In this document: positions 6,393-23,705 of the stretch, one piece after another
Layout of the letters: every line of letters starts with the position of its first letter
Position numbering within the stretch: the first letter of the stretch is position 1
DNA from: a phage
Sequence record: PX290280.1
Direction: 5' to 3' (one strand)
Length of the DNA: 44,859 bases
Program-made: the position numbers and the translations under genes
Notes under the pieces: model-generated
Told to the model about the DNA's origin: nothing
The model's input: only the letters and a program-made list of their open reading frames with translations
Databases searched by the model: none

Positions 6393-6415
6393 ATTTACCG
6401 GACACTATAGGATAG
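6393..6415 (+). promoter_or_regulatory. Phage RNAP promoter (ATTTACCGGACACTATAGGATAG)
   Basis: Matches the 23-nt consensus shared by 12 sites. Confidence 0.7.
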
Positions 6416-6768: not shown

Positions 6769-8757
6769 ATGGCTATTATTCAGAATGTACCGTGTCCTGC
6801 CTGTCAAAAGAATGGACATGATATTACTGGCAACCATCTTATGATATTTGAGGATGGCGCTGGTTACTGTAACCGTGGTCACTTCCATGATAACGGCAAG
6901 CCTTATTACCATAAGCCAGAGGGTGGCATCGAGATAACCGAATTACCTATTACTGGCAATATCAAATATACACCTTCTCAGTTTAAAGAGATGGAGAAGG
7001 AAGGGAAGATTAGCGACCCTAAGCTACGCGCCATCGCACTTGGTGGTATGCGTATGAAAGACCGTTGGGAGGTCATGAATGAGCAAGAAAGGGCAGAACA
7101 AGAAGCAGAGTGGAAACTTGATGTTGAATGGTTCCTCACGCTTAAGCGTAAGAACCTTGTATCCCGTCACATTCGAGGTGACATCGCAGCAATGTACGAT
7201 GTGCGCGTTGGACACGATGAAGAGGGAAGAGTCAACCGTCACTATTATCCACGATATGAAAAGGGTGTGCTTGTTGGAGCAAAATGCCGGACGTTGCCGA
7301 AGGATTTTAAGTTCGGACACCTAGGTAAACTCTTTGGTATGCAAGACCTTTTCGGTATGAACACTTTGTCTCACGTGTTAGACAAGGGAAGACGAAAGGA
7401 TTGCTTGCTTATTGTGGGCGGCGAACTGGATGCACTAGCAGCACAGCAGATGCTCCTTGATTCTGCCAAGGGTACTAAGTGGGAAGGCCAGCCTTACCAT
7501 GTATGGTCTGTCAATAAAGGTGAGTCTTGCCTTGAAGAGATAGTGCAGAGCCGTGAGCATATCGCCCAATTCAAGAAGATTATATGGGGTTTTGATGGAG
7601 ATGAGGTGGGGCAGAAGCAGAACCAACAAGCTGCTCGCCTGTTTCCTGGCAAATCCTACATCCTCGAATACCCCTCTGGTTGCAAAGATGCTAACAAGGC
7701 ATTGATGGCTGGCAAGGCTAAAGAATTTGTGGATGCTTGGTTTAATGCAAAGTCATCTGATGAAGTCTTTGGTAGCCAGATTAAATCTATCGCATCTCAA
7801 AGGGATAAGCTCAAGGCTGCACGTCCAGAGCAAGGACTATCATGGCCTTGGCCTAAGCTGAACAAGGTAACGCTGGGTATTCGTAAGAACCAGCTTATCA
7901 TTATAGGTGCAGGCTCTGGTGTAGGTAAGACTGAGTTCCTTCGTGAAGTTGTTAAGCACCTCATTGAAGAACACGGTGAATCTGTAGGCATCATTTCTAC
8001 AGAAGACCCAATGGTCAAGGTGTCCCGTGCTTTTATCGGTAAGTGGATTGATAAGCGTATTGAGTTACCACCAACCAACGACCCGAAAGAAGACGGATAC
8101 CGTGAGGTGTTCGATTACACCGAGGAAGAAGCTAACGCTGCCATTGATTATGTGGCTGATACAGGAAAGCTATTTGTGGCTGACCTAGAAGGCGACTATT
8201 CGATGGAGAAGGTAGAGCAAACTTGCCTAGAGTTTGAGGCTATGGGAATTTCTAATATCATCATTGATAACTTAACGGGGATTAAATTAGATGAGCGTGC
8301 TTTTGGTGGGAAGGTTGGTGCACTTGATGAATGCGTCAAACGAATTGGTACTATCAAAGACCGACATGCGGTTACGATTTTCCTTGTCTCTCACCTTACA
8401 CGTCCTCCGGCAAACCGTACCCAACACGAAGAAGGTGGCGAAGTTATCCTTTCTGACTTCCGAGGCTCAGGCGCTATCGGATTCTGGGCATCTTACGCCT
8501 TGGGGATTGAGCGTAATACAAGAGCTGAAACGCTTGATGAAAGGACTACCACGTACATCTCTTGTGTCAAAGACCGCGACCAAGGTATCTACACAGGAAC
8601 CAAAGTCATGCTCAAGGGTGACATTCAGACCGGACGCTTGAGAGAACCACAAGCTAGAACAAGGTCGTTTGATACAGGCGAAGCAAGGCAACAAGAAGTA
8701 CCGGATTTACCGGACACTATAGAAGAGACAACATTTGACGATGAACAGGAGTTTTAA
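6769..8757 (+). CDS. DNA primase/helicase (T7 gp4-like)
   Basis: N-terminal zinc ribbon CPACQ...CNRGH, DnaB-type Walker A GAGSGVGKTE, and an acidic C-terminal tail ending DDEQEF. Confidence 0.9.
   Translation: MAIIQNVPCPACQKNGHDITGNHLMIFEDGAGYCNRGHFHDNGKPYYHKPEGGIEITELPITGNIKYTPSQFKEMEKEGKISDPKLRAIALGGMRMKDRWEVMNEQERAEQEAEWKLDVEWFLTLKRKNLVSRHIRGDIAAMYDVRVGHDEEGRVNRHYYPRYEKGVLVGAKCRTLPKDFKFGHLGKLFGMQDLFGMNTLSHVLDKGRRKDCLLIVGGELDALAAQQMLLDSAKGTKWEGQPYHVWSVNKGESCLEEIVQSREHIAQFKKIIWGFDGDEVGQKQNQQAARLFPGKSYILEYPSGCKDANKALMAGKAKEFVDAWFNAKSSDEVFGSQIKSIASQRDKLKAARPEQGLSWPWPKLNKVTLGIRKNQLIIIGAGSGVGKTEFLREVVKHLIEEHGESVGIISTEDPMVKVSRAFIGKWIDKRIELPPTNDPKEDGYREVFDYTEEEANAAIDYVADTGKLFVADLEGDYSMEKVEQTCLEFEAMGISNIIIDNLTGIKLDERAFGGKVGALDECVKRIGTIKDRHAVTIFLVSHLTRPPANRTQHEEGGEVILSDFRGSGAIGFWASYALGIERNTRAETLDERTTTYISCVKDRDQGIYTGTKVMLKGDIQTGRLREPQARTRSFDTGEARQQEVPDLPDTIEETTFDDEQEF
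8705..8727 (+). promoter_or_regulatory. Phage RNAP promoter inside the 3' end of the primase/helicase gene
   Basis: ATTTACCGGACACTATAGAAGAG. Confidence 0.7.
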
Positions 8758-8918
8758 TGGAAATTATTAAACCAGTATTGAATATCGGTATTGAAATCCT
8801 ATTCATGCTTGTGATCGCAGATTATGCTGCACGATATGGATTCAAGAAAGCTGTGAAACTTATCGTTGCATCTGGTTTTATGATGTCAATGTTCTTTATT
8901 GTAACACGCCTTATCTAG
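8757..8918 (+). CDS. Small membrane protein (53 aa, two predicted transmembrane segments)
   Basis: ATG overlaps the primase stop (TAATG); hydrophobic sequence. Confidence 0.45.
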   Translation: MEIIKPVLNIGIEILFMLVIADYAARYGFKKAVKLIVASGFMMSMFFIVTRLI

Positions 8919-8931
8919 TGTATTTATCAGG

Positions 8932-8955
8932 GCTTGTCTCACATGTGAGACAGGC
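8932..8955. repeat. Extended palindrome hairpin (gcttGTCTCACATGTGAGACaggc)
   Basis: Core palindrome plus flanking complementarity, followed by TCTTATT. Confidence 0.8.
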
Positions 8956-8990
8956 TCTTATTAAGTACATTAAATAACTGGAGATTGATT

Positions 8991-9713
8991 ATGTATAAAT
9001 TAGTATTGAATGTAGGTGATTATGTTCGTAACATCAATGAAGCCTCACGTCGTTATCGTTGCCGTGGTGTAGTGGCTCGTGTAAGTGAGAACATGTATCA
9101 TGTAGAATATGATGATGATATTAAGGCTTCTTATCACAAGAAAACCACACATAAATATCTTGAAAAGGTTGTAGAGGTAAACAATCAATGTAAGTGCATA
9201 CATGATGAGGTTTGCGATAAGTGTGCACGTCAGGTAGTTAAAGCCTTTACCTTTGCTCAACGCTATGGTTCTATGTATGGTGCTGGTAACAAGACCCTTG
9301 CAGAAGCAGCTTGGAAGACATTGCAGTTTGAGCGTTCAAATGGACGACGCACCGCACTTAAGAAAGAGCGCCGCAATGTAATCACTGGTAAGACTCAAAG
9401 TGAGATGATTAAGCAATATGGCACTGCATTAGGTGTTACACAGTTCAATACTCGTGCATTGGGTAAATCCACAGGGCAAGCTATGGTGAAAATTGGTGAA
9501 GCTATGATGCACCCAAATGTGCCTGTGCGAATCTTGGATGTTGACCATGCAATCACAGAGCATGGCACACCACGCCGTGTAGCTAACAATCATTTTGCCG
9601 ACACTATAGAAGGTATTATTCTTAAGCAAGGGTTGAAGGGTCTTCACATCTTAAATGGTGAAGAATTACTGTACCTACCTATCGTTACTGAAGAAACATA
9701 CGTGAATATCTAA
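8991..9713 (+). CDS. Hypothetical protein (240 aa) with a Cys cluster
   Basis: ATG 8991 with GGAGA ribosome-binding site (the track's upstream TTG is less likely); CKCIHDEVCDKC motif. Confidence 0.6.
   Translation: MYKLVLNVGDYVRNINEASRRYRCRGVVARVSENMYHVEYDDDIKASYHKKTTHKYLEKVVEVNNQCKCIHDEVCDKCARQVVKAFTFAQRYGSMYGAGNKTLAEAAWKTLQFERSNGRRTALKKERRNVITGKTQSEMIKQYGTALGVTQFNTRALGKSTGQAMVKIGEAMMHPNVPVRILDVDHAITEHGTPRRVANNHFADTIEGIILKQGLKGLHILNGEELLYLPIVTEETYVNI
9592..9614 (+). promoter_or_regulatory. Phage RNAP promoter inside a coding region
   Basis: ATTTTGCCGACACTATAGAAGGT. Confidence 0.55.
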
Positions 9714-9723
9714 GGAGTTAATC

Positions 9724-9942
9724 ATGACTAAGGTATTAATTTATATGCGTGGACCTCATAAATGCTATGCAGTTGTAGCACCTGATGGTGTTAAGCCCTA
9801 TGGTACTTCAAAGGGGTTTGCATTAATAGGTGCCAGTCTTAGTGCAAGTTTTCAGATGGAACTTTTCGGTCATTTGACTGAAAAAGAGTTCCGTGAGGAG
9901 TTTAATGTAATCGGCAGCTTTATGGTGAAACATGCAGAATAA
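9724..9942 (+). CDS. Hypothetical protein (72 aa)
   Basis: AAGGAG ribosome-binding site. Confidence 0.6.
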   Translation: MTKVLIYMRGPHKCYAVVAPDGVKPYGTSKGFALIGASLSASFQMELFGHLTEKEFREEFNVIGSFMVKHAE

Positions 9943-10108
9943 ACATAGTCTTAAAATGTTCGATGGTCATGAAGACCTGCAAGCCAAGATTACTAACCAA
10001 GCCTTCCTGTTCGCACAGTTAACTATGGCTGAAGCAAAGAAGAATAGCCTGACGCGTGAACAGGTTATCAAGGAAAGTGAAGTGAAACGTAAGATTCGCA
10101 GTCGATAA
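9932..10108 (+). CDS. Hypothetical protein (58 aa)
   Basis: Overlaps the previous ORF by 11 nt; GGTGA upstream. Confidence 0.4.
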   Translation: MQNKHSLKMFDGHEDLQAKITNQAFLFAQLTMAEAKKNSLTREQVIKESEVKRKIRSR

Positions 10109-10114
10109 GTCAAG

Positions 10115-10138
10115 GGTTGTCTCACACGTGAGACAGCC
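10115..10138. repeat. Palindrome hairpin variant (ggtTGTCTCACACGTGAGACAgcc)
   Basis: CACGTG centre instead of CATG; followed by TTTCAT. Confidence 0.75.
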
Positions 10139-10165
10139 TTTCATCATATTGATTGGAGGTGCATT

Positions 10166-10273
10166 ATGCCACGTGATTATGATTCTGATTGGGACTACTA
10201 TGACTCAATGAATCCAAAACCCGAACGTTCAGATGATTACTACGAAACAGAGGCAATGTATGAAGACTATTAA
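10166..10273 (+). CDS. Hypothetical small acidic protein (35 aa)
   Basis: Strong GGAGGTG ribosome-binding site; rich in D, Y and E. Confidence 0.45.
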   Translation: MPRDYDSDWDYYDSMNPKPERSDDYYETEAMYEDY

Positions 10274-10478
10274 ATTAAGCAAGGTTTGCTCTTGCGGTAA
10301 AGGTTATCGCAGTCGTATTGATGGCAAGTGTGAAAACTGCCGCACTAAAAGGCAGAAAGATCACAATAATAAATACCACATGCACTTAATGTATCTTGAC
10401 CTTAAAGCTACACCTGATTCTGTATTAGGTAAAAGTCTTAGAGTTAAATACTTTGGAGCAATCTATGAAATCAATTGA
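10260..10478 (+). CDS. Small zinc-finger-like protein (about 72 aa)
   Basis: CSCGKG...CENC motif; GAGG upstream; start taken at ATG 10260 rather than the track's 10233. Confidence 0.5.
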   Translation: MKTIKLSKVCSCGKGYRSRIDGKCENCRTKRQKDHNNKYHMHLMYLDLKATPDSVLGKSLRVKYFGAIYEIN

Positions 10479-12884
10479 TTGGAAGAAGGAAGCAGAAGGT
10501 CGTATCTTAGTAATGGATGCGGAAGCTAAAGGTCTGCTGGATACTATCCGCTACGGTCATCGTGAAGATGTACACATCATTTGCTGCATGGATTTGCTTA
10601 CTACAGAGGAGTTCTTATTCTTTGACCCATATGAGATGCGTGACCCTGAAGCAAGGGAACACCTGAAAGAGTGGGAAGGCCATCAAGATGGAACCTTGGT
10701 TGATGGTGTTAACTTCCTAAAGCACTGTGAAGCCATCGTCTCACAGAACTTCCTAGGGTACGACGGCCTTCTATTTGAGAAAGCATTCCCTGATATCTGG
10801 AAAGGCTTTAACTATACCGAGAGACGCGGCAAGGGCAGACTCCGCGCTGACCTGTGTCCGGTACGCGTCATGGATACGCTGGTCATGAGTCGCCTGTTAA
10901 ACCCCGATAGACGCCTTCCTCCGCAAGCATATGCCAAAGGTATGGGTAACGTCGCCCCTCACTCAATTGAGGCGCACGGCATCCGTATAGGCCGCTATAA
11001 ACCGGAGAACGAGGACTGGTCTAAACTAACTGACCACATGGTTCACCGTGTACGCGAGGACGTGGCGATAGGCCGTGACCTATTCCTCTGGCTATTTAAC
11101 GGAGAATGGACGGAGCACAAACGCCGTGGCGTGAATAAACGCACTGGCCTAGGTATTGAGACAGCCTTCCACATGGAGTCCATTGTGGCGCTGGAGATGA
11201 GCCGTCAGGCCGAGCGTGGATTCCGTCTGGATATAGATAAAGCATTAGCACGATGCGAAGAACTGGACGCTAAGATTGATGAGACAGTCGCAGCGTTCCG
11301 CCCTCACATGCCTATGCGTATCAAGTCTAAACCTTTTAAACCGGAAGAAAAGAATGAAGTATGCCAACGCGCAAATGAGTATGGAGCTAGCAACAATATA
11401 CCTACTGTCCTTGACCCCTCACACTTTCTTCATGCCGAGAGACGAGGAGATCGCAAGACAGTATGGAGTGTCACTACTAAGTCTGGTGATTGGTCGGCTA
11501 GTGTCAAGAAAGACTTTCCTCACCTTAGAGGAAACCGTAATGACACGCCAAGTATCAAGTGGATTGGCGCTTACTCGCCTGTTACTTTCGAAGAGATTCC
11601 CTTGGGTAACAGGGATACAGTTAAGCAAGTGCTCTATGATTATGGATGGAAAGGTGTTGAATTTAACGATACCGAGCAAGCGCATCTGGATGAGTATGGA
11701 GTGTTACCCAAACCTTGGAGTGGGAAGATAAATGAAAAGTCCCTTACTTTATGGCAAGAGAGAGCCGCACGTGAAGGTAAAACAGTCCCTGATTGGTGCT
11801 TGGGTATCGCTGCATGGTACATACTCGTATCCCGTCGTGGTACGATCCTTAACCGTGGTGACGTTGAAGCCTTCGACCAGAAGGGGGTGTGGCCTTCGCA
11901 AGCTGGTGTACGAAAGTGTCGCGGCCTTGTACCTGTAGCATTTAACAAGGAGTTAGGAATCAATGCGCAGCAATACTATGAGAGGTATGGGTGTTGGCCT
12001 ACGTCTGACAAGGATGACGGAGAGTGGCGTGTTCCGGCTGTGATGGTGCTGGTCTTGAACTACGTGTACTATCTCACTTCATGAATGACCCTGAGTATCA
12101 AGATATTGTACTGCATGGTGATATACATACTCATAACCAGATGAAGGCTGGTCTTCCCAAGCGTGATATGGCGAAGACATTTATATATGCCTTCTTATAT
12201 GGGTCTGGTATAGCTAACCTTGCAGCAGTATGCGGTGTTACTGAGGAAGAAATGAAGGAAGTTGTGGCAAGATTTGAGATTGAACTACCTTCCCTTGCAC
12301 GTCTTCGTGAGAATGTTATCGCACAAGGTAACAAGTTTGGCTATCTACAAGCACCTGATGGGCATTGGGGTCGCATCCGTATGTCTGGTGGTGAACTTAA
12401 AGAGCACACTATGCTTAACGTACTACTCCAGATGACTGGCTCTCTGTGTATGAAATACGCATTGGTCAGAGCGTTTGCAGTGATGCGCAAGGAGGGTGTG
12501 GCTCTAGATAGCATGGGTAACCCTTGCGGTGTAGCTAACGTGCACGATGAAATCCAGATGGAAGTACCTGAAGATGAGGTCTTGTATCTCAACTACGACT
12601 TGCCTTTCACCGTAGAAGGGTTCGAAACAGAGAAGGCTGCTGTGAAAGCAGTGTTCGATGCAGAGGAGAAACGTGTTCATGTGGATTCTGAAGGACGTAT
12701 GTGGTCTGCTGCAAATCTCGTTAGCGTTGATGCTGATGCTGGTGTACTTCATTGCCAGCGTCGTTATCACCGTGCAGGGCATATCATTGCCGATGCAATG
12801 ACTTGGGCTGGTCATTATTTGAAGATGCGTTGTCCGATGGCAGGTGAGTATAAGATTGGTGCAAGCTGGAAGGAAACACACTGA
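10465..12884 (+). CDS. DNA polymerase (family A, T7 gp5-like), interrupted by an apparent -1 frameshift near 12042
   Basis: The first frame reaches ...GEWRVPAV and stops at 12084. The next frame carries motif A DGAGLELRVLSHFM, motif B KTFIYAFLYGSG and motif C VHDEIQ, matching T7 DNAP as recalled. Re-reading G12042 joins them into one polypeptide. Confidence 0.85.
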
Positions 12885-13000
12885 TGGACAGGTTTGATGT
12901 TGTTTGCCTATTCTCTATCTTCTTTCTTATATTCCTTATGCTTGCTTGCTATGGAAGTATACGATTAGATATACCTGATGAAGAGGAGGGTTACGATTGA
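12884..13000 (+). CDS. Small hydrophobic peptide (38 aa)
   Basis: ATG overlaps the DNAP stop (TGATG); one predicted transmembrane helix. Confidence 0.4.
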   Translation: MDRFDVVCLFSIFFLIFLMLACYGSIRLDIPDEEEGYD

Positions 13001-13098
13001 TGCAAACTTCTTTTATCATTCTTGGGATCATATTATTTATGGTAGTATTCTGGGCTTTCTCTGGCATTGACCCAGATTGTGATGGTAACTACGACTGA
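13000..13098 (+). CDS. Small hydrophobic peptide (32 aa)
   Basis: ATG overlaps the previous stop (TGATG); one predicted transmembrane helix. Confidence 0.4.
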   Translation: MQTSFIILGIILFMVVFWAFSGIDPDCDGNYD

Positions 13099-13156
13099 GT
13101 TATACTCAAGGTCACTTACGAGTGGCCTTTATGAATAACTTAACTAAGGAAATATT

Positions 13157-13417
13157 ATGATTAAATATACTGCTTATCAGTTAACTAAAGACCGTAAGAT
13201 AGGTATTGAGGTTAAGGCTTGGGAGCGAGGTCATATCTCTGGAGTAATAGAGGTGCGTTCCAACGAAGGTATGATGATTAGAAGACACTTTAGTTTCGCT
13301 AAATCTACTTGTAAGCATTTAACAGAGGAACAATTCTTACATCATATTATTAATAATATTAAAGCTATCCAGCCTTATGCCAAGCAAGTTGTAGGTAATG
13401 TCACAGTAGTACATTGA
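13157..13417 (+). CDS. Hypothetical protein (86 aa)
   Basis: AAGGA ribosome-binding site; ORF track entry. Confidence 0.6.
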   Translation: MIKYTAYQLTKDRKIGIEVKAWERGHISGVIEVRSNEGMMIRRHFSFAKSTCKHLTEEQFLHHIINNIKAIQPYAKQVVGNVTVVH

Positions 13418-13439
13418 TTTACTGGACACTATAGAAGGA
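13417..13439 (+). promoter_or_regulatory. Phage RNAP promoter (consensus copy)
   Basis: ATTTACTGGACACTATAGAAGGA. Confidence 0.8.
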
Positions 13440-13502
13440 AAGCCTAGACAATCTAGGTTTATAAGGTAGTATAGGTAATTAAGTAAATATAGGAGATAAA
13501 AC

Positions 13503-13880
13503 ATGTCTATGGTAACTACTCTGGTATTTGTAGCTCAATACTTTCGTGGTCTGGCTAATAAGTTCAAGTCCAAGGCTATCAAAGCTATTGAGTCTCGCAT
13601 CGAGGCAGTACAGGCAGAGCAAGTTAAAGTTGAAGAACATCGTAGTTCTCAAATGATTGACTGCCATAACCGCTACTATGTGTCTCGTGATGACCTTAAT
13701 GCACGCCAAGTCAAAGAGGTTGAAGATATGATGGCACGTCACCAGCAAGAGCGTGACAGCCTGAAAGCTGAATTTGAAGAGAACAAGGCATCCATTGCTC
13801 GGGTACACCAAGCTGCATCTGACAGTCTGAAGAAAGAGATTGTTATGCTGGAAATAGAACTGGATAACCTGACCAAATAA
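13503..13880 (+). CDS. Hypothetical coiled-coil protein (125 aa)
   Basis: AGGAG ribosome-binding site; charged, helical sequence. Confidence 0.65.
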   Translation: MSMVTTLVFVAQYFRGLANKFKSKAIKAIESRIEAVQAEQVKVEEHRSSQMIDCHNRYYVSRDDLNARQVKEVEDMMARHQQERDSLKAEFEENKASIARVHQAASDSLKKEIVMLEIELDNLTK

Positions 13881-13886
13881 GGAGTT

Positions 13887-14186
13887 ATGATGGAAGAAGT
13901 AATTCAAGCTAAACATGTAGGTATTATCTTTCGTGATCTAGAGCAGCGTAAAGTAGCAGGTCATATTCGTCTGGCTAAAGAGGAAGACACCGCAATCACT
14001 ACTGTAGAACAAGCAGATGCCTATCGTGGTCCAGAGTTTACTCAAGGTGAAACTTGTCATCAATTGAGCCTTTCACTTTGTGACACTATGGCTAGTGTAA
14101 ATGTACAAGAGGTTGAAGATGGTGAATGTGTTAGTTATGTCTACCCTCTCGATACTATTGCACGTATTAAGGTAGTTCATAAGTAA
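13887..14186 (+). CDS. Hypothetical protein (99 aa)
   Basis: AGGAG ribosome-binding site. Confidence 0.65.
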   Translation: MMEEVIQAKHVGIIFRDLEQRKVAGHIRLAKEEDTAITTVEQADAYRGPEFTQGETCHQLSLSLCDTMASVNVQEVEDGECVSYVYPLDTIARIKVVHK

Positions 14187-14207
14187 TTACTGGACACTAT
14201 AGAACAA
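14185..14207 (+). promoter_or_regulatory. Phage RNAP promoter
   Basis: AATTACTGGACACTATAGAACAA. Confidence 0.75.
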
Positions 14208-14263
14208 TAGGTCGGCTTAGTTCGGCCTATGATTGTGTAGTGTAACAATAGGAGACTAAATAA

Positions 14264-15070
14264 ATGGCACGTGGTGATTTTGATTTTGGTGCTCAGGTTA
14301 CTAAAGCTGAAGGTAAAGTATTTAAGAACCCTGAAGTTGGTGATCATGAAGCAGTAATCTCTGGCATCATTCATGTTGGTTCCTTCCAAGACATCTTTAA
14401 GAAAGGTAATACCACTGAAGTTAAGAAGCCAGCAAACTTTGTTCTTGTTAAGATTATCCTGATGGGTGACGACGATAAGAATGAAGACGATTCTCGCATG
14501 GAACAATGGATGGCTGTGCCTCTGAAGTCTGGTGATAAGGCAACACTGACTAAGTTCCTGAATGCAGTTGACCCTAAAGAGTTGCTGGGTGGCTTCGATG
14601 ATTTTATCGGTGAATGTCTGACTGCAACTATGGTTGGCTCTGGCGACAAGAATGATGATGGTACTTTCAAGTATGTTAACTGGAAAGGCTTTGGCGGTAC
14701 GCCTGATAAGTTGAAGAAGCTTGTACTGGCTCAGGTAGAAGAGGAAGGTCTGTCTATGACAGGTCATATCACCTTCGACAAGCTGACCAAAGAAATCCTT
14801 GATGACATCCCAGCTAACTTGGTACGTCAATACTTCCTGAATGAGACACCTCGTGGTAAGAACCTGTCTGTTGCTGGCTCTCACGTAGAAGCTATTATCA
14901 AAGCTGCTCGTGAAGAAGACCCTGAATGGAAGAAGGCTAAGAAGAAAGACGAGGAAGATGCTACCCCAGCTAATCGTAAATCTCTGGATACTGGTGAGTC
15001 TGTTCCACAGGAAGTACCTGAAGCAGAAGATACTCCTGCACCGGAGATGGATGAGGACGCGGAATATTAA
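14264..15070 (+). CDS. Abundant DNA-metabolism protein with an acidic C-terminal tail; possible single-stranded DNA-binding protein
   Basis: 268 aa, codon usage of a highly expressed gene, C-terminus PEMDEDAEY; sits directly downstream of a phage promoter. The function is inferred and not motif-proven. Confidence 0.4.
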   Translation: MARGDFDFGAQVTKAEGKVFKNPEVGDHEAVISGIIHVGSFQDIFKKGNTTEVKKPANFVLVKIILMGDDDKNEDDSRMEQWMAVPLKSGDKATLTKFLNAVDPKELLGGFDDFIGECLTATMVGSGDKNDDGTFKYVNWKGFGGTPDKLKKLVLAQVEEEGLSMTGHITFDKLTKEILDDIPANLVRQYFLNETPRGKNLSVAGSHVEAIIKAAREEDPEWKKAKKKDEEDATPANRKSLDTGESVPQEVPEAEDTPAPEMDEDAEY

Positions 15071-15079
15071 GGAGAAAGG

Positions 15080-15298
15080 ATGAAAGTACAAATCGTAACC
15101 CTGCACTGCAAGAAAGGAATTACAACTCTTGGCGGCAACACTTTTCACTCCTTCTCTGAAGGGGACACATATGCCGACCTGCACTACATCTGGCGCGACG
15201 GACAGCACGTGGTGAACTACAGCGACCCAGCTACGGGGAAACGCCACGGCGTATCGCTTCCGGCGCATGACATTGCTCAGGTGAACACAGTTTTATAA
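15080..15298 (+). CDS. Hypothetical protein (72 aa)
   Basis: AAGGAG ribosome-binding site. Confidence 0.6.
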   Translation: MKVQIVTLHCKKGITTLGGNTFHSFSEGDTYADLHYIWRDGQHVVNYSDPATGKRHGVSLPAHDIAQVNTVL

Positions 15299-15299
15299 A

Positions 15300-15315
15300 G
15301 TCTCACGTGTGAGAC
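15300..15315. repeat. Palindrome variant (GTCTCACGTGTGAGAC)
   Basis: Stem GTCTCAC / GTGAGAC, located between a stop codon and the promoter at 15331. Confidence 0.7.
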
Positions 15316-15330
15316 AAGTCGGTGTCTGGT

Positions 15331-15353
15331 ATTTACTGGACACTATAGAAGAG
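15331..15353 (+). promoter_or_regulatory. Phage RNAP promoter
   Basis: ATTTACTGGACACTATAGAAGAG. Confidence 0.8.
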
Positions 15354-15403
15354 AAGAATTTTAATCGGCGATAATGCCATAACCAACAAAAGGAGAATTT
15401 AAT

Positions 15404-15775
15404 ATGTTCAAGATTGAAACTATCGTAAACCGTGTTGTTAAAGGTGCTGCTCTGGTATCCGTTGAGTCTTTCATTATCGTCGATGAAGCTGATCAACTGG
15501 TAGCTGGTACTAAGGCTTACGATACCCGTGAAGAAGCTCAGGCTAAGATTGACAGCATGGGTAACTTCGCTGCTGGTCTGGAGTTCGCTCGTGCTTGCTT
15601 CCCTGAGCAGGCTGACAAAGCTCAGATTGGTAAGGCTAATATCGTAGCTGAATATCTGGATTGGGTTGCTGCTGGTAAACCAGTGAAAGAAGTTAAAGCT
15701 GCTGAAGAAGCTGAAGCTCCGGCAGTAGAAGTGTCTGCACCGGAAGCTCCGGTTAGCGAAGAGGAAGAGTTTTGA
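15404..15775 (+). CDS. Hypothetical abundant protein (123 aa) with an acidic C-terminus ending EEEEF
   Basis: AAGGAG ribosome-binding site, strong codon bias, followed by a terminator-like hairpin. Confidence 0.65.
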   Translation: MFKIETIVNRVVKGAALVSVESFIIVDEADQLVAGTKAYDTREEAQAKIDSMGNFAAGLEFARACFPEQADKAQIGKANIVAEYLDWVAAGKPVKEVKAAEEAEAPAVEVSAPEAPVSEEEEF

Positions 15776-19145: not shown

Positions 19146-19262
19146 ATGACTTGTCCTAATTGTGGAAGTGAAGAAACAGAACATGTAGTTATGTCAGATA
19201 CTTATCATTTCTACTTCTGTCATAGCTGCGACACCACCATTGAAGAGGAAGAAGTTGTATGA
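19146..19262 (+). CDS. Zinc-ribbon mini-protein (38 aa)
   Basis: CPNCG...CHSCD; overlaps the ligase start. Confidence 0.4.
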   Translation: MTCPNCGSEETEHVVMSDTYHFYFCHSCDTTIEEEEVV

Positions 19263-20206
19263 ATATCTTTGAGTTCCTAGGTCTTCCAGAAGACCACCGC
19301 AATCACCCATTCATGTTGGTGAAACATCGCGGTGAAGTTCCTGAGAAGAAATTAACTTTTCCATGTTATGCACAGGTAAAACGAGATGGTATCTTTTCTG
19401 CTGTTGTTGTTCGCACTGATGGTGTCGTTGGCATTTTTGGTCGCACTGGTAAGAAACTGGCAAACACTGAAGTGCTCGAACAAACCTTTGCTACCTTTCC
19501 GGTTGGCATTTATCTTGGTGAGCTTCAGTCTATGGCCTTTGATATCTACCTTGAGGCACTCTCTGGGGTGGTGAACCCAAATCGCACAGAGCCACTTGAT
19601 TTCATAGGCCAGCAGATTAAAGATAACCTGTATATTGACTTCTTCGATATGTTAACCGTTAAGGCATTCCATGATGGATTCACTGATGTTTCTTATCTCA
19701 AACGTTACGATGCTTTACATCGTCGCATCGGCACTCATCTTAGCGGGTACAACGCTATCCTTCCTATTACTCCTTGCCATAATGAGCGAGAAGTTGAAGC
19801 GTTTGCGCAAGAGCAAATAGACGCAGGCCGAGAGGGTGCTGTGTTTAAACTGGACTGTGATTATGAAGCAGGCCACAAAGGTTATCGTCAGACTAAAGAA
19901 GTCCGTAAGGTAACTTATGACCTTACTTGTATTGGCTTTGAAGAAGGTAAAGGCAAGTACAAAGGTAAGGTAGCTAACCTCATTTTCAAATGGAAAGGGG
20001 GCAAGACAATCAAAGCTATGTTAGGTAAAGGGTGGACTCATGCAGATGCAGAACAGATGTTCCACGATATTAAACATGGTGGACGATTGAATGTCATTGG
20101 TAAAATCTTTGAAGTAAAAGGTCTTCAGGATTCAAGCAAGGGCAACATTCGTCTGCCCAAAGCGGGAGAATTAAGACATGACAAAGATGAACCAGATTTC
20201 TTTTGA
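19259..20206 (+). CDS. ATP-dependent DNA ligase
   Basis: Motif I VKRDG (lysine adenylation site), motif V EGAVFK and a Lys-rich C-terminal region, as in T7 gene 1.3. Confidence 0.85.
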   Translation: MNIFEFLGLPEDHRNHPFMLVKHRGEVPEKKLTFPCYAQVKRDGIFSAVVVRTDGVVGIFGRTGKKLANTEVLEQTFATFPVGIYLGELQSMAFDIYLEALSGVVNPNRTEPLDFIGQQIKDNLYIDFFDMLTVKAFHDGFTDVSYLKRYDALHRRIGTHLSGYNAILPITPCHNEREVEAFAQEQIDAGREGAVFKLDCDYEAGHKGYRQTKEVRKVTYDLTCIGFEEGKGKYKGKVANLIFKWKGGKTIKAMLGKGWTHADAEQMFHDIKHGGRLNVIGKIFEVKGLQDSSKGNIRLPKAGELRHDKDEPDFF

Positions 20207-20393
20207 TAGCATGAAGGCAACTCGTGCAGTTGAGGTAGCAGAAGCTATCTTTGAAACTTTATCATGTGGCATGGAATTGCCGTATACTTTACTGGCTGAT
20301 GCAGAAGAGCTTGGTCTTTCTGTAGAAGCTATCCAAGAGAAGGTTGAAGAACTCTATGGTACAGACGAAGAAGAAACCGACGATTTCATTTGA
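20178..20393 (+). CDS. Hypothetical acidic protein (71 aa)
   Basis: GGGAG ribosome-binding site; overlaps the ligase 3' end. Confidence 0.5.
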   Translation: MTKMNQISFDSMKATRAVEVAEAIFETLSCGMELPYTLLADAEELGLSVEAIQEKVEELYGTDEEETDDFI

Positions 20394-23682: not shown

Positions 23683-23705
23683 TTTACTGGACACTATAGA
23701 AGGGA
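23683..23705 (+). promoter_or_regulatory. Phage RNAP promoter upstream of the capsid gene
   Basis: ATTTACTGGACACTATAGAAGGG. Confidence 0.85.

Follow-up and report, generated by a model that had tools for sequence, protein, structure and literature searches.

A conserved Glu-Phe/Tyr tip on the acidic tails of the helicase, a predicted single-stranded-DNA-binding protein and a third, small protein of a K1E-type phage

In the phage sequence PX290280.1, the primase-helicase gp9 and two further proteins, gp16 and gp18, share a common build, in which a folded domain is followed by a disordered acidic linker and a conserved Glu-Phe/Tyr-COOH tip. We put at roughly 55% the probability that these tips form a shared docking system in which gp16 serves as the SSB (single-stranded-DNA-binding protein), a non-orthologous replacement within a T7-like replisome. 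The window, i.e. the whole stretch of 44,859 bases analyzed here, is an almost complete genome of a K1E/K1-5-type phage (Vectrevirus, Molineuxvirinae, SP6 group of Autographiviridae), with 97-99% identity to K1E and its relatives between positions 14000 and 16000 (2 kb compared). The gene names used are those of the K1E annotation, where gp9 is listed as a putative helicase and the equivalents of the 268-amino-acid gp16 and the 123-amino-acid gp18 carry no product name. The shared-tip arrangement looks like a variation on the acidic-tail hubs already known from T7, T4, and bacterial replisomes.

The tails were defined by Phe, Tyr, or Trp as the last residue together with at least four Asp/Glu and no Lys or Arg among the last eight residues. 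Three of the 50 plausible genes of PX290280.1 (gp9, gp16, and gp18) encode such an end, compared with 2 of the 12,834 8-mers from the interior of its proteins, from which 0.008 C-termini would be expected (Poisson P ~8e-8), and with none of 150 control open reading frames (ORFs) from the minus strand. The ORFs and their C-termini are exactly those singled out in a first-pass annotation made from the letters alone, and their occurrence is non-random. The same definition applied to T7 returned gp2.5 and narrowly missed gp4, which has three Asp/Glu in its last eight residues, so it does point to replisome proteins.

The three tailed-protein genes, the polymerase gene, and the promoters all lie on the plus strand. 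The primase-helicase gp9 (6769..8757, 662 amino acids; phrog_239, E = 3e-186; Pfam DnaB_C and Toprim) is 25% identical to T7 gp4 over 459 amino acids (E = 1e-26) and is thus its ortholog. Its tail (residues 631-662, 8659..8754) has a net charge of -9 and ends in ...TTFDDEQEF. The tail of gp16 (gene at 14264..15070; 'gp18' in SP6) spans residues 226-268 (14939..15067), with a net charge of -10, and consists of a variable P/A/E-rich linker and a tip of the form [LM]D..xE[YF], here ...APEMDEDAEY. In gp18 (15404..15775; SP6_20), a conserved N-terminal domain of residues 1-94 leads into a tail of net charge -8 (residues 93-123, 15680..15772), composed of a hypervariable A/P/E linker of variable length and the tip SEEEEF, so that the protein ends in ...PVSEEEEF.

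Homologs came from the protein database and from related viral contigs (35, each taken with flanks of 10 kb), and the sequences were right-justified at the C-terminus, giving 25 distinct helicase, 98 gp16-family, and 28 gp18 tails. Across the three sets, 88-89% of the tails have Glu in the penultimate place and 92-100% close with Phe or Tyr. The last two positions have an entropy of 0.5-0.9 bits versus 2.1-2.7 bits at positions -30 to -9, i.e. in the linkers. These are rich in P/A/E, differ in length, and are predicted to be disordered. The E-F/Y tip is kept in 23 of the 25 helicase tails, down to ~50% identity; a terminal Tyr or Phe occurs in 96 of the 98 gp16-family tails and in all 28 gp18 tails, and 120 of 120 database homologs of gp18 end in Phe. 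Because the tip stays fixed while the linkers drift, we see here three unrelated folded domains with one design, a free linker and a fixed E-[FY] tip.

The ATP-dependent DNA ligase (19259-20206) was considered as a fourth tailed protein and rejected. It ends in ...RHDKDEPDFF, where the acidic end extends only ~6 residues past the apparent ligase motif VI (RHDK), and its relatives end in EPDVF, EPDVQ, EDADA, or FADVE; it was left out since the aromatic end is not conserved and a Lys is present. Covariation of Phe and Tyr among the three tips was also considered, with one lineage having Tyr throughout and another Phe throughout, and the independent events are too few to claim it. As a separate observation, the helicase ORF of SP6 (L012) ends in ...TQEFNG, two residues longer than the ...QEF of its closest relatives.

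We regard gp16 as the likely SSB of the SP6 group because of its OB-fold model, the match of this model to ssDNA binders, its relatives with DDDIPF ends, its position between polymerase and exonuclease, its own promoter, and the absence of any other recognizable SSB in the genome. The AlphaFold model consists of an OB-fold core (residues ~20-146), a helical subdomain (148-220), and the disordered acidic tail, with a predicted local distance difference test score (pLDDT) below 50 for residues 228-258. The modeled core is a five-stranded OB barrel, and the best structural matches are the ssDNA binders PrgE, RPA, LEF-3, and POT1, so that ssDNA binding by gp16 is predicted from the model. Structure prediction had been suggested in the first-pass annotation as a way to look for an OB fold in both unnamed proteins; it gave one for gp16 and none for gp18, for which the fold search returned only generic small beta-beta-beta-alpha domains. 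The UPF0339/YegP family (DUF1508) was also considered for gp18, by sequence and by structure, and gave no clear assignment. An SP6-type phage promoter (ACACTATAG core in the context TAATTACTGGACACTATAGAAC; 14184..14205) lies directly upstream of gp16, 70 nucleotides (nt) before the start codon. No ORF of PX290280.1 resembles the SSB of E. coli, T7 gp2.5, or the SSBs of N4 and HK620, and a tblastn search of the whole genome with E. coli SSB gave matches only at E of at least 2. The acidic core of gp16 (net charge -8) is no objection to an SSB role, as the cores of validated SSBs span a similar range of charge (-11 for N4 SSB, -3 for gp2.5).

Searches by sequence in Pfam, PHROGs, NCBIfam, and PDB, whether from one sequence or from a profile, gave no name above threshold for gp16. 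Pfam, including the bacterial SSB model, matched nothing at E up to 0.1, the PHROGs family is phrog_862 ('unknown function'), and all 40 records sampled from 216 phage matches are labeled 'hypothetical protein'. The OB core matched the NCBIfam family 'NGO0469 replication initiation protein' below threshold; this was not taken as a function, because that name rests only on weak BLAST matches in a 2007 prophage survey. The link between the gp16 family and the NGO0469 family (P0194, E = 6.6e-11) suggests that a distant kinship of the two may be real.

An exhaustive hidden Markov model search with the gp16 family profile yielded 75 representatives, and in most of the full-length ones the protein closes with an acidic tail whose last residue is aromatic. 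Among the distant members, several have the end DDDIPF, DDVPF, DDEVPF, DDDCPF, or DDDLPF. With members swapping the phage-type tip for the tip of host SSB, the family is most simply understood as an SSB family. The class II module of PX290280.1 runs from polymerase through gp16 to exonuclease and on to endonuclease VII, phosphoesterase, nucleotide kinase, and ligase, and two DDDIPF-tailed family genes sit in the same place as gp16, between a T7-type polymerase and a 5'-3' exonuclease. These genes, located on metagenomic contigs (L042, 932-1660; L043, 2815-3774), carry the exact DDDIPF tip next to the T7-type polymerase and exonuclease, and either tail type is therefore compatible with a phage-encoded polymerase.

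The expectation that one of the two unnamed proteins would be an SSB thus fits gp16 in kind; kinship with gp2.5 was not detected. Alignment of the gp16 family to T7 gp2.5 with hhalign gave a probability of 0.07%, and tblastn in both directions was empty. The SSB of N4 (265 amino acids) and the DUF669 family are comparable in that they are phage-specific SSBs of similar size missed by standard SSB models, and the SSB function of the DUF669 family was first derived from like evidence (an OB-like fold, an acidic tail, and the lack of another SSB) and has since been confirmed for HK620. A Foldseek search of the gp16 model against BFVD found two DUF669 proteins (E = 7e-5 and 2e-4) with TM scores of 0.3-0.44. 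At the level of profiles, hhalign gave a probability of 0.09% against a 30-sequence HK620/DUF669 profile and 0.14% against N4 SSB, Pfam DUF669 matched none of 65 gp16-family members, and the PHROGs families are distinct (phrog_862, 2544, 6599, and 32668 for the gp16 family versus phrog_743 for the SSBs of N4 and HK620); assignment of gp16 to the N4/DUF669 type by sequence was accordingly rejected. PrgE of plasmid pCF10 (PDB 8S4S), one of the best structural matches and grouped here with SSBs of the lactococcal-phage type, is 15% identical to gp16, has 144 amino acids, lacks the helical subdomain and the long acidic tail, and binds double-stranded as well as single-stranded DNA. E. coli Ssb resembles gp16 in having an OB core, a disordered linker, and a conserved acidic tip (...MDFDDDIPF), whereas its OB core shows no sequence similarity, gp16 adds the helical subdomain, and the tip in the SP6 group lacks I-P-F.

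The closest parallel to the whole arrangement is T7, where the acidic tails of helicase and SSB likewise close with an acidic residue followed by an aromatic one (...NDTDF in gp4, ...EDGDF in gp2.5). The logic is the same, with the dipeptide D-F there and E-[F/Y] here. The SSB gene of T7 also has its own phage promoter (phi2.5 for gene 2.5). Loss of the terminal aromatic residue of gp2.5 is dominant lethal in T7, and suppressors of this defect lie in gene 5. T7 orthologs are present for the helicase, the polymerase, the RNA polymerase, and the nucleotide kinase, while no T7 homologs of gp16 and gp18 were found, and gp18, as a third tailed protein, has no T7 counterpart. By analogy with T7, we propose that the E-[F/Y] tip would act as a short docking motif, through which the helicase, the SSB, and gp18 would bind to and compete for one common site. 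This site would most probably be located on the phage DNA polymerase, as gp4 and gp2.5 of T7 bind gp5. In that case the tails would link polymerase and helicase, allow SSB to be stripped from the template by the polymerase, and recruit gp18 to the fork. Docking by the tips, the receptor they would bind, ssDNA binding by gp16, and a role of gp18 at the fork are inferences.

In favor of this proposal, docking of the gp4 and gp2.5 tails on gp5 is documented for T7, where the front basic patch of the polymerase comprises K587, K589, R590, and R591 (PMC12339929). Several points weigh against it. When T7 gp5 and 29 SP6-group polymerases were aligned with MAFFT, most of the patch segment proved to be deleted in the latter, only its first position sometimes holding Lys or Arg. 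An invariant DG[HR]WGRIR beside it presumably represents a general Pol A motif and not the patch. Docking on the T7 patch, the site named in the first-pass annotation, is therefore not supported for these polymerases; any docking site must be elsewhere, and the earlier model of the site needs revision. The strongest conserved basic cluster of the 29 polymerases is MPMRIKSKPFKP (residues 282-293 of K1E gp13; mean net charge +4), situated at the start of a large thumb insertion, where T7 has its thioredoxin-binding domain. In T7 the tails have their second binding site on that domain, and the cluster is a docking-site candidate only by this positional analogy, the insertion of the SP6 group being larger than the T7 domain and without homology to it. 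Two further points concern gp18. Its structural model is weak (pLDDT 61.5) and uninformative on function, and the more distant relatives in which helicase and SSB are still tailed (L033, L034, and L037) lack gp18, which means that it is not obligatory to the tail system.

In the gene for the putative docking partner, the family A DNA polymerase of PX290280.1 (10453..12884), 127 nt are missing at ~12036, as compared with K1E gp13 and 28 related loci covering the same part of the gene. The deletion takes out ~42 codons (...AIAISIGTSTFRMRHRNVVNIPARGLYPLRDLFIAGKGKLILG...) a short way upstream of motif A and puts the rest out of frame, so that two ORFs remain, of 543 and 286 amino acids. With its polymerase gene frameshifted in this way, PX290280.1 is defective or mis-assembled.

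The first-pass annotation had proposed both unnamed proteins as candidate replisome components, which fits gp16 as a predicted SSB; for gp18, with no OB fold and uninformative fold matches, it is unproven. The shared tip, which resembles that of the helicase, is the only real argument for replisome membership of gp18, beside its position, its promoter, and its co-occurrence with gp16. The gene was found only in SP6-group genomes that also carry gp16, always just downstream of it. A consensus-strength phage promoter (15330..15351; TATTTACTGGACACTATAGAAG) lies directly upstream; it matches the consensus exactly, with the TATTTACTGGACACTATAGAAG stretch identical to that of the major-capsid-gene promoter at 23691, which suggests that gp18 is abundant. 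In two relatives (L035 and L036), a 91-amino-acid ORF downstream of the SSB gene, in the same position as gp18, ends in ...EEAETF; it may plausibly be a divergent gp18, with a non-significant hhalign E of 0.063. We tentatively raise the possibility, at less than even odds, that gp18 is a previously unrecognized third client of the tail-docking hub, small, abundantly expressed, and confined to the SP6 group. If so, its E-F tip, of the helicase/SSB type, would take up the common docking site, whether on the polymerase or on the SSB, and gp18 would in this way control the coupling of helicase and polymerase, the exchange of polymerases, or the removal of SSB, as a component absent from T7. Given the lack of the T7 basic patch, the docking surface would then be a new one. 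It is also conceivable, if rather unlikely, that gp18 is a host-takeover or anti-defense protein, such as a small inhibitor or a decoy, with a tail that is unrelated to the other two or binds a host target.

The tails could also act within their own proteins, as DNA-mimicking acidic segments that fold onto the DNA-binding surface and tune its affinity, with no shared receptor involved. T7 gp2.5, E. coli SSB, and T4 gp32 are demonstrated cases of such regulation, and the acidic, disordered character of the tails fits it. For gp2.5, folding of the tail into the protein's own DNA groove is documented: an AlphaFold2 (AF2) model places it in the positive groove, and the affinity for ssDNA rises on deletion of the tail (PMC12339929). 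This mechanism leaves unexplained why an E-[FY] dipeptide is common to three unrelated folds while the sequence upstream drifts, and why gp18, without a predicted DNA-binding fold, has a tail at all. We consider it improbable as a full explanation and, since both roles coexist in T7, more a complement to docking than an alternative.

Another reading has the tips imitate the C-terminus of host SSB (...DDDIPF) and recruit, or compete for, the host enzymes that interact with it, instead of docking on the phage polymerase. The literal DDDIPF-type ends of distant gp16-family members favor it, as does the resemblance of gp16 ...PEMDEDAEY to E. coli ...PPMDFDDDIPF (P-x-M-D start, acidic run, aromatic end). 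The SP6-group tip, however, lacks the hydrophobic I-P-F end, and in E. coli SSB the penultimate Pro is important for partner binding. Moreover, the helicase bears the same tip, which is sensible for a phage-internal hub as in T7, and the phage supplies its own polymerase, helicase, exonuclease, and ligase. For the SP6-group proteins we therefore hold host mimicry to be quite improbable. Finally, a mere coincidence of composition, with acidic C-termini common in phage proteins and aromatic ends arising by chance, could appeal to acidic ends without a final aromatic residue elsewhere in the genome (...YEGEEEE of an Ocr-like protein, ...EEETDDFI of a 71-amino-acid protein) and to the non-conserved look-alike on the ligase, yet it is effectively refuted by the conservation of the tip across 25, 98, and 28 distinct tails, besides the excess of three observed ends over 0.008 expected and the empty control set.

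Phages of the SP6, K1-5, and K1E type find wide use, with SP6 RNA polymerase serving as a reagent and the K1 capsule-specific phages applied in therapy, and gp16 as the predicted SSB would fill a gap in the replication module of the SP6 group. It would represent a clean non-orthologous replacement, with a different OB-fold protein doing the job of gp2.5 beside an orthologous helicase and polymerase, and with the assembly logic of a shared acidic-aromatic tip apparently retained despite the replacement of the SSB. As members of the gp16 family occur across many podophages, some tipped with E-[FY] and others with the host-like DDDIPF, the mixed tips offer a natural experiment on the retargeting of SSB tails between phage and host partners, and gp18 provides a concrete candidate for a new replisome accessory factor.

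Eleven SP6-type promoters with the consensus ATTTACTGGACACTATAGAAG, located at 6402, 8714, 9601, 13426, 14194, 15340, 18541, 23691, 36450, 38555, and 40236, define the transcription units of the genome; 11 ACACTATAG cores were found where 0.78 would be expected by chance. Besides gp16 and gp18, the nucleotide kinase and major capsid genes each have one of these promoters directly upstream. Immediately past the gp17 stop codon and ~15 nt ahead of the gp18 promoter, a perfect 16-nt palindrome, GTCTCACGTGTGAGAC (15300-15315), might form a hairpin, mark a processing site, or bind a protein.

Two small genes flank gp16, gp15.5 (13887-14186) and gp17 (15080-15298). The latter matches phrog_8057, the family of gp15.5, with E = 5e-4, and by this match the two look like distant paralogs. 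Further upstream, gp15 (13503-13880, 125 amino acids) matches phrog_7450, 'polysaccharide chain length determinant protein'; this label looks doubtful for a small protein in a region of DNA metabolism and may be a composition-driven transfer. The 109-amino-acid Ocr-like anti-restriction protein (1953-2282; phrog_2568, E = 8e-51) is an acidic DNA mimic whose end lacks an aromatic residue, as does that of T7 gp0.3 (...EEYEEDEE). In the 71-amino-acid protein (20178-20393; phrog_5860), the aromatic residue stands at position -2 instead of -1.

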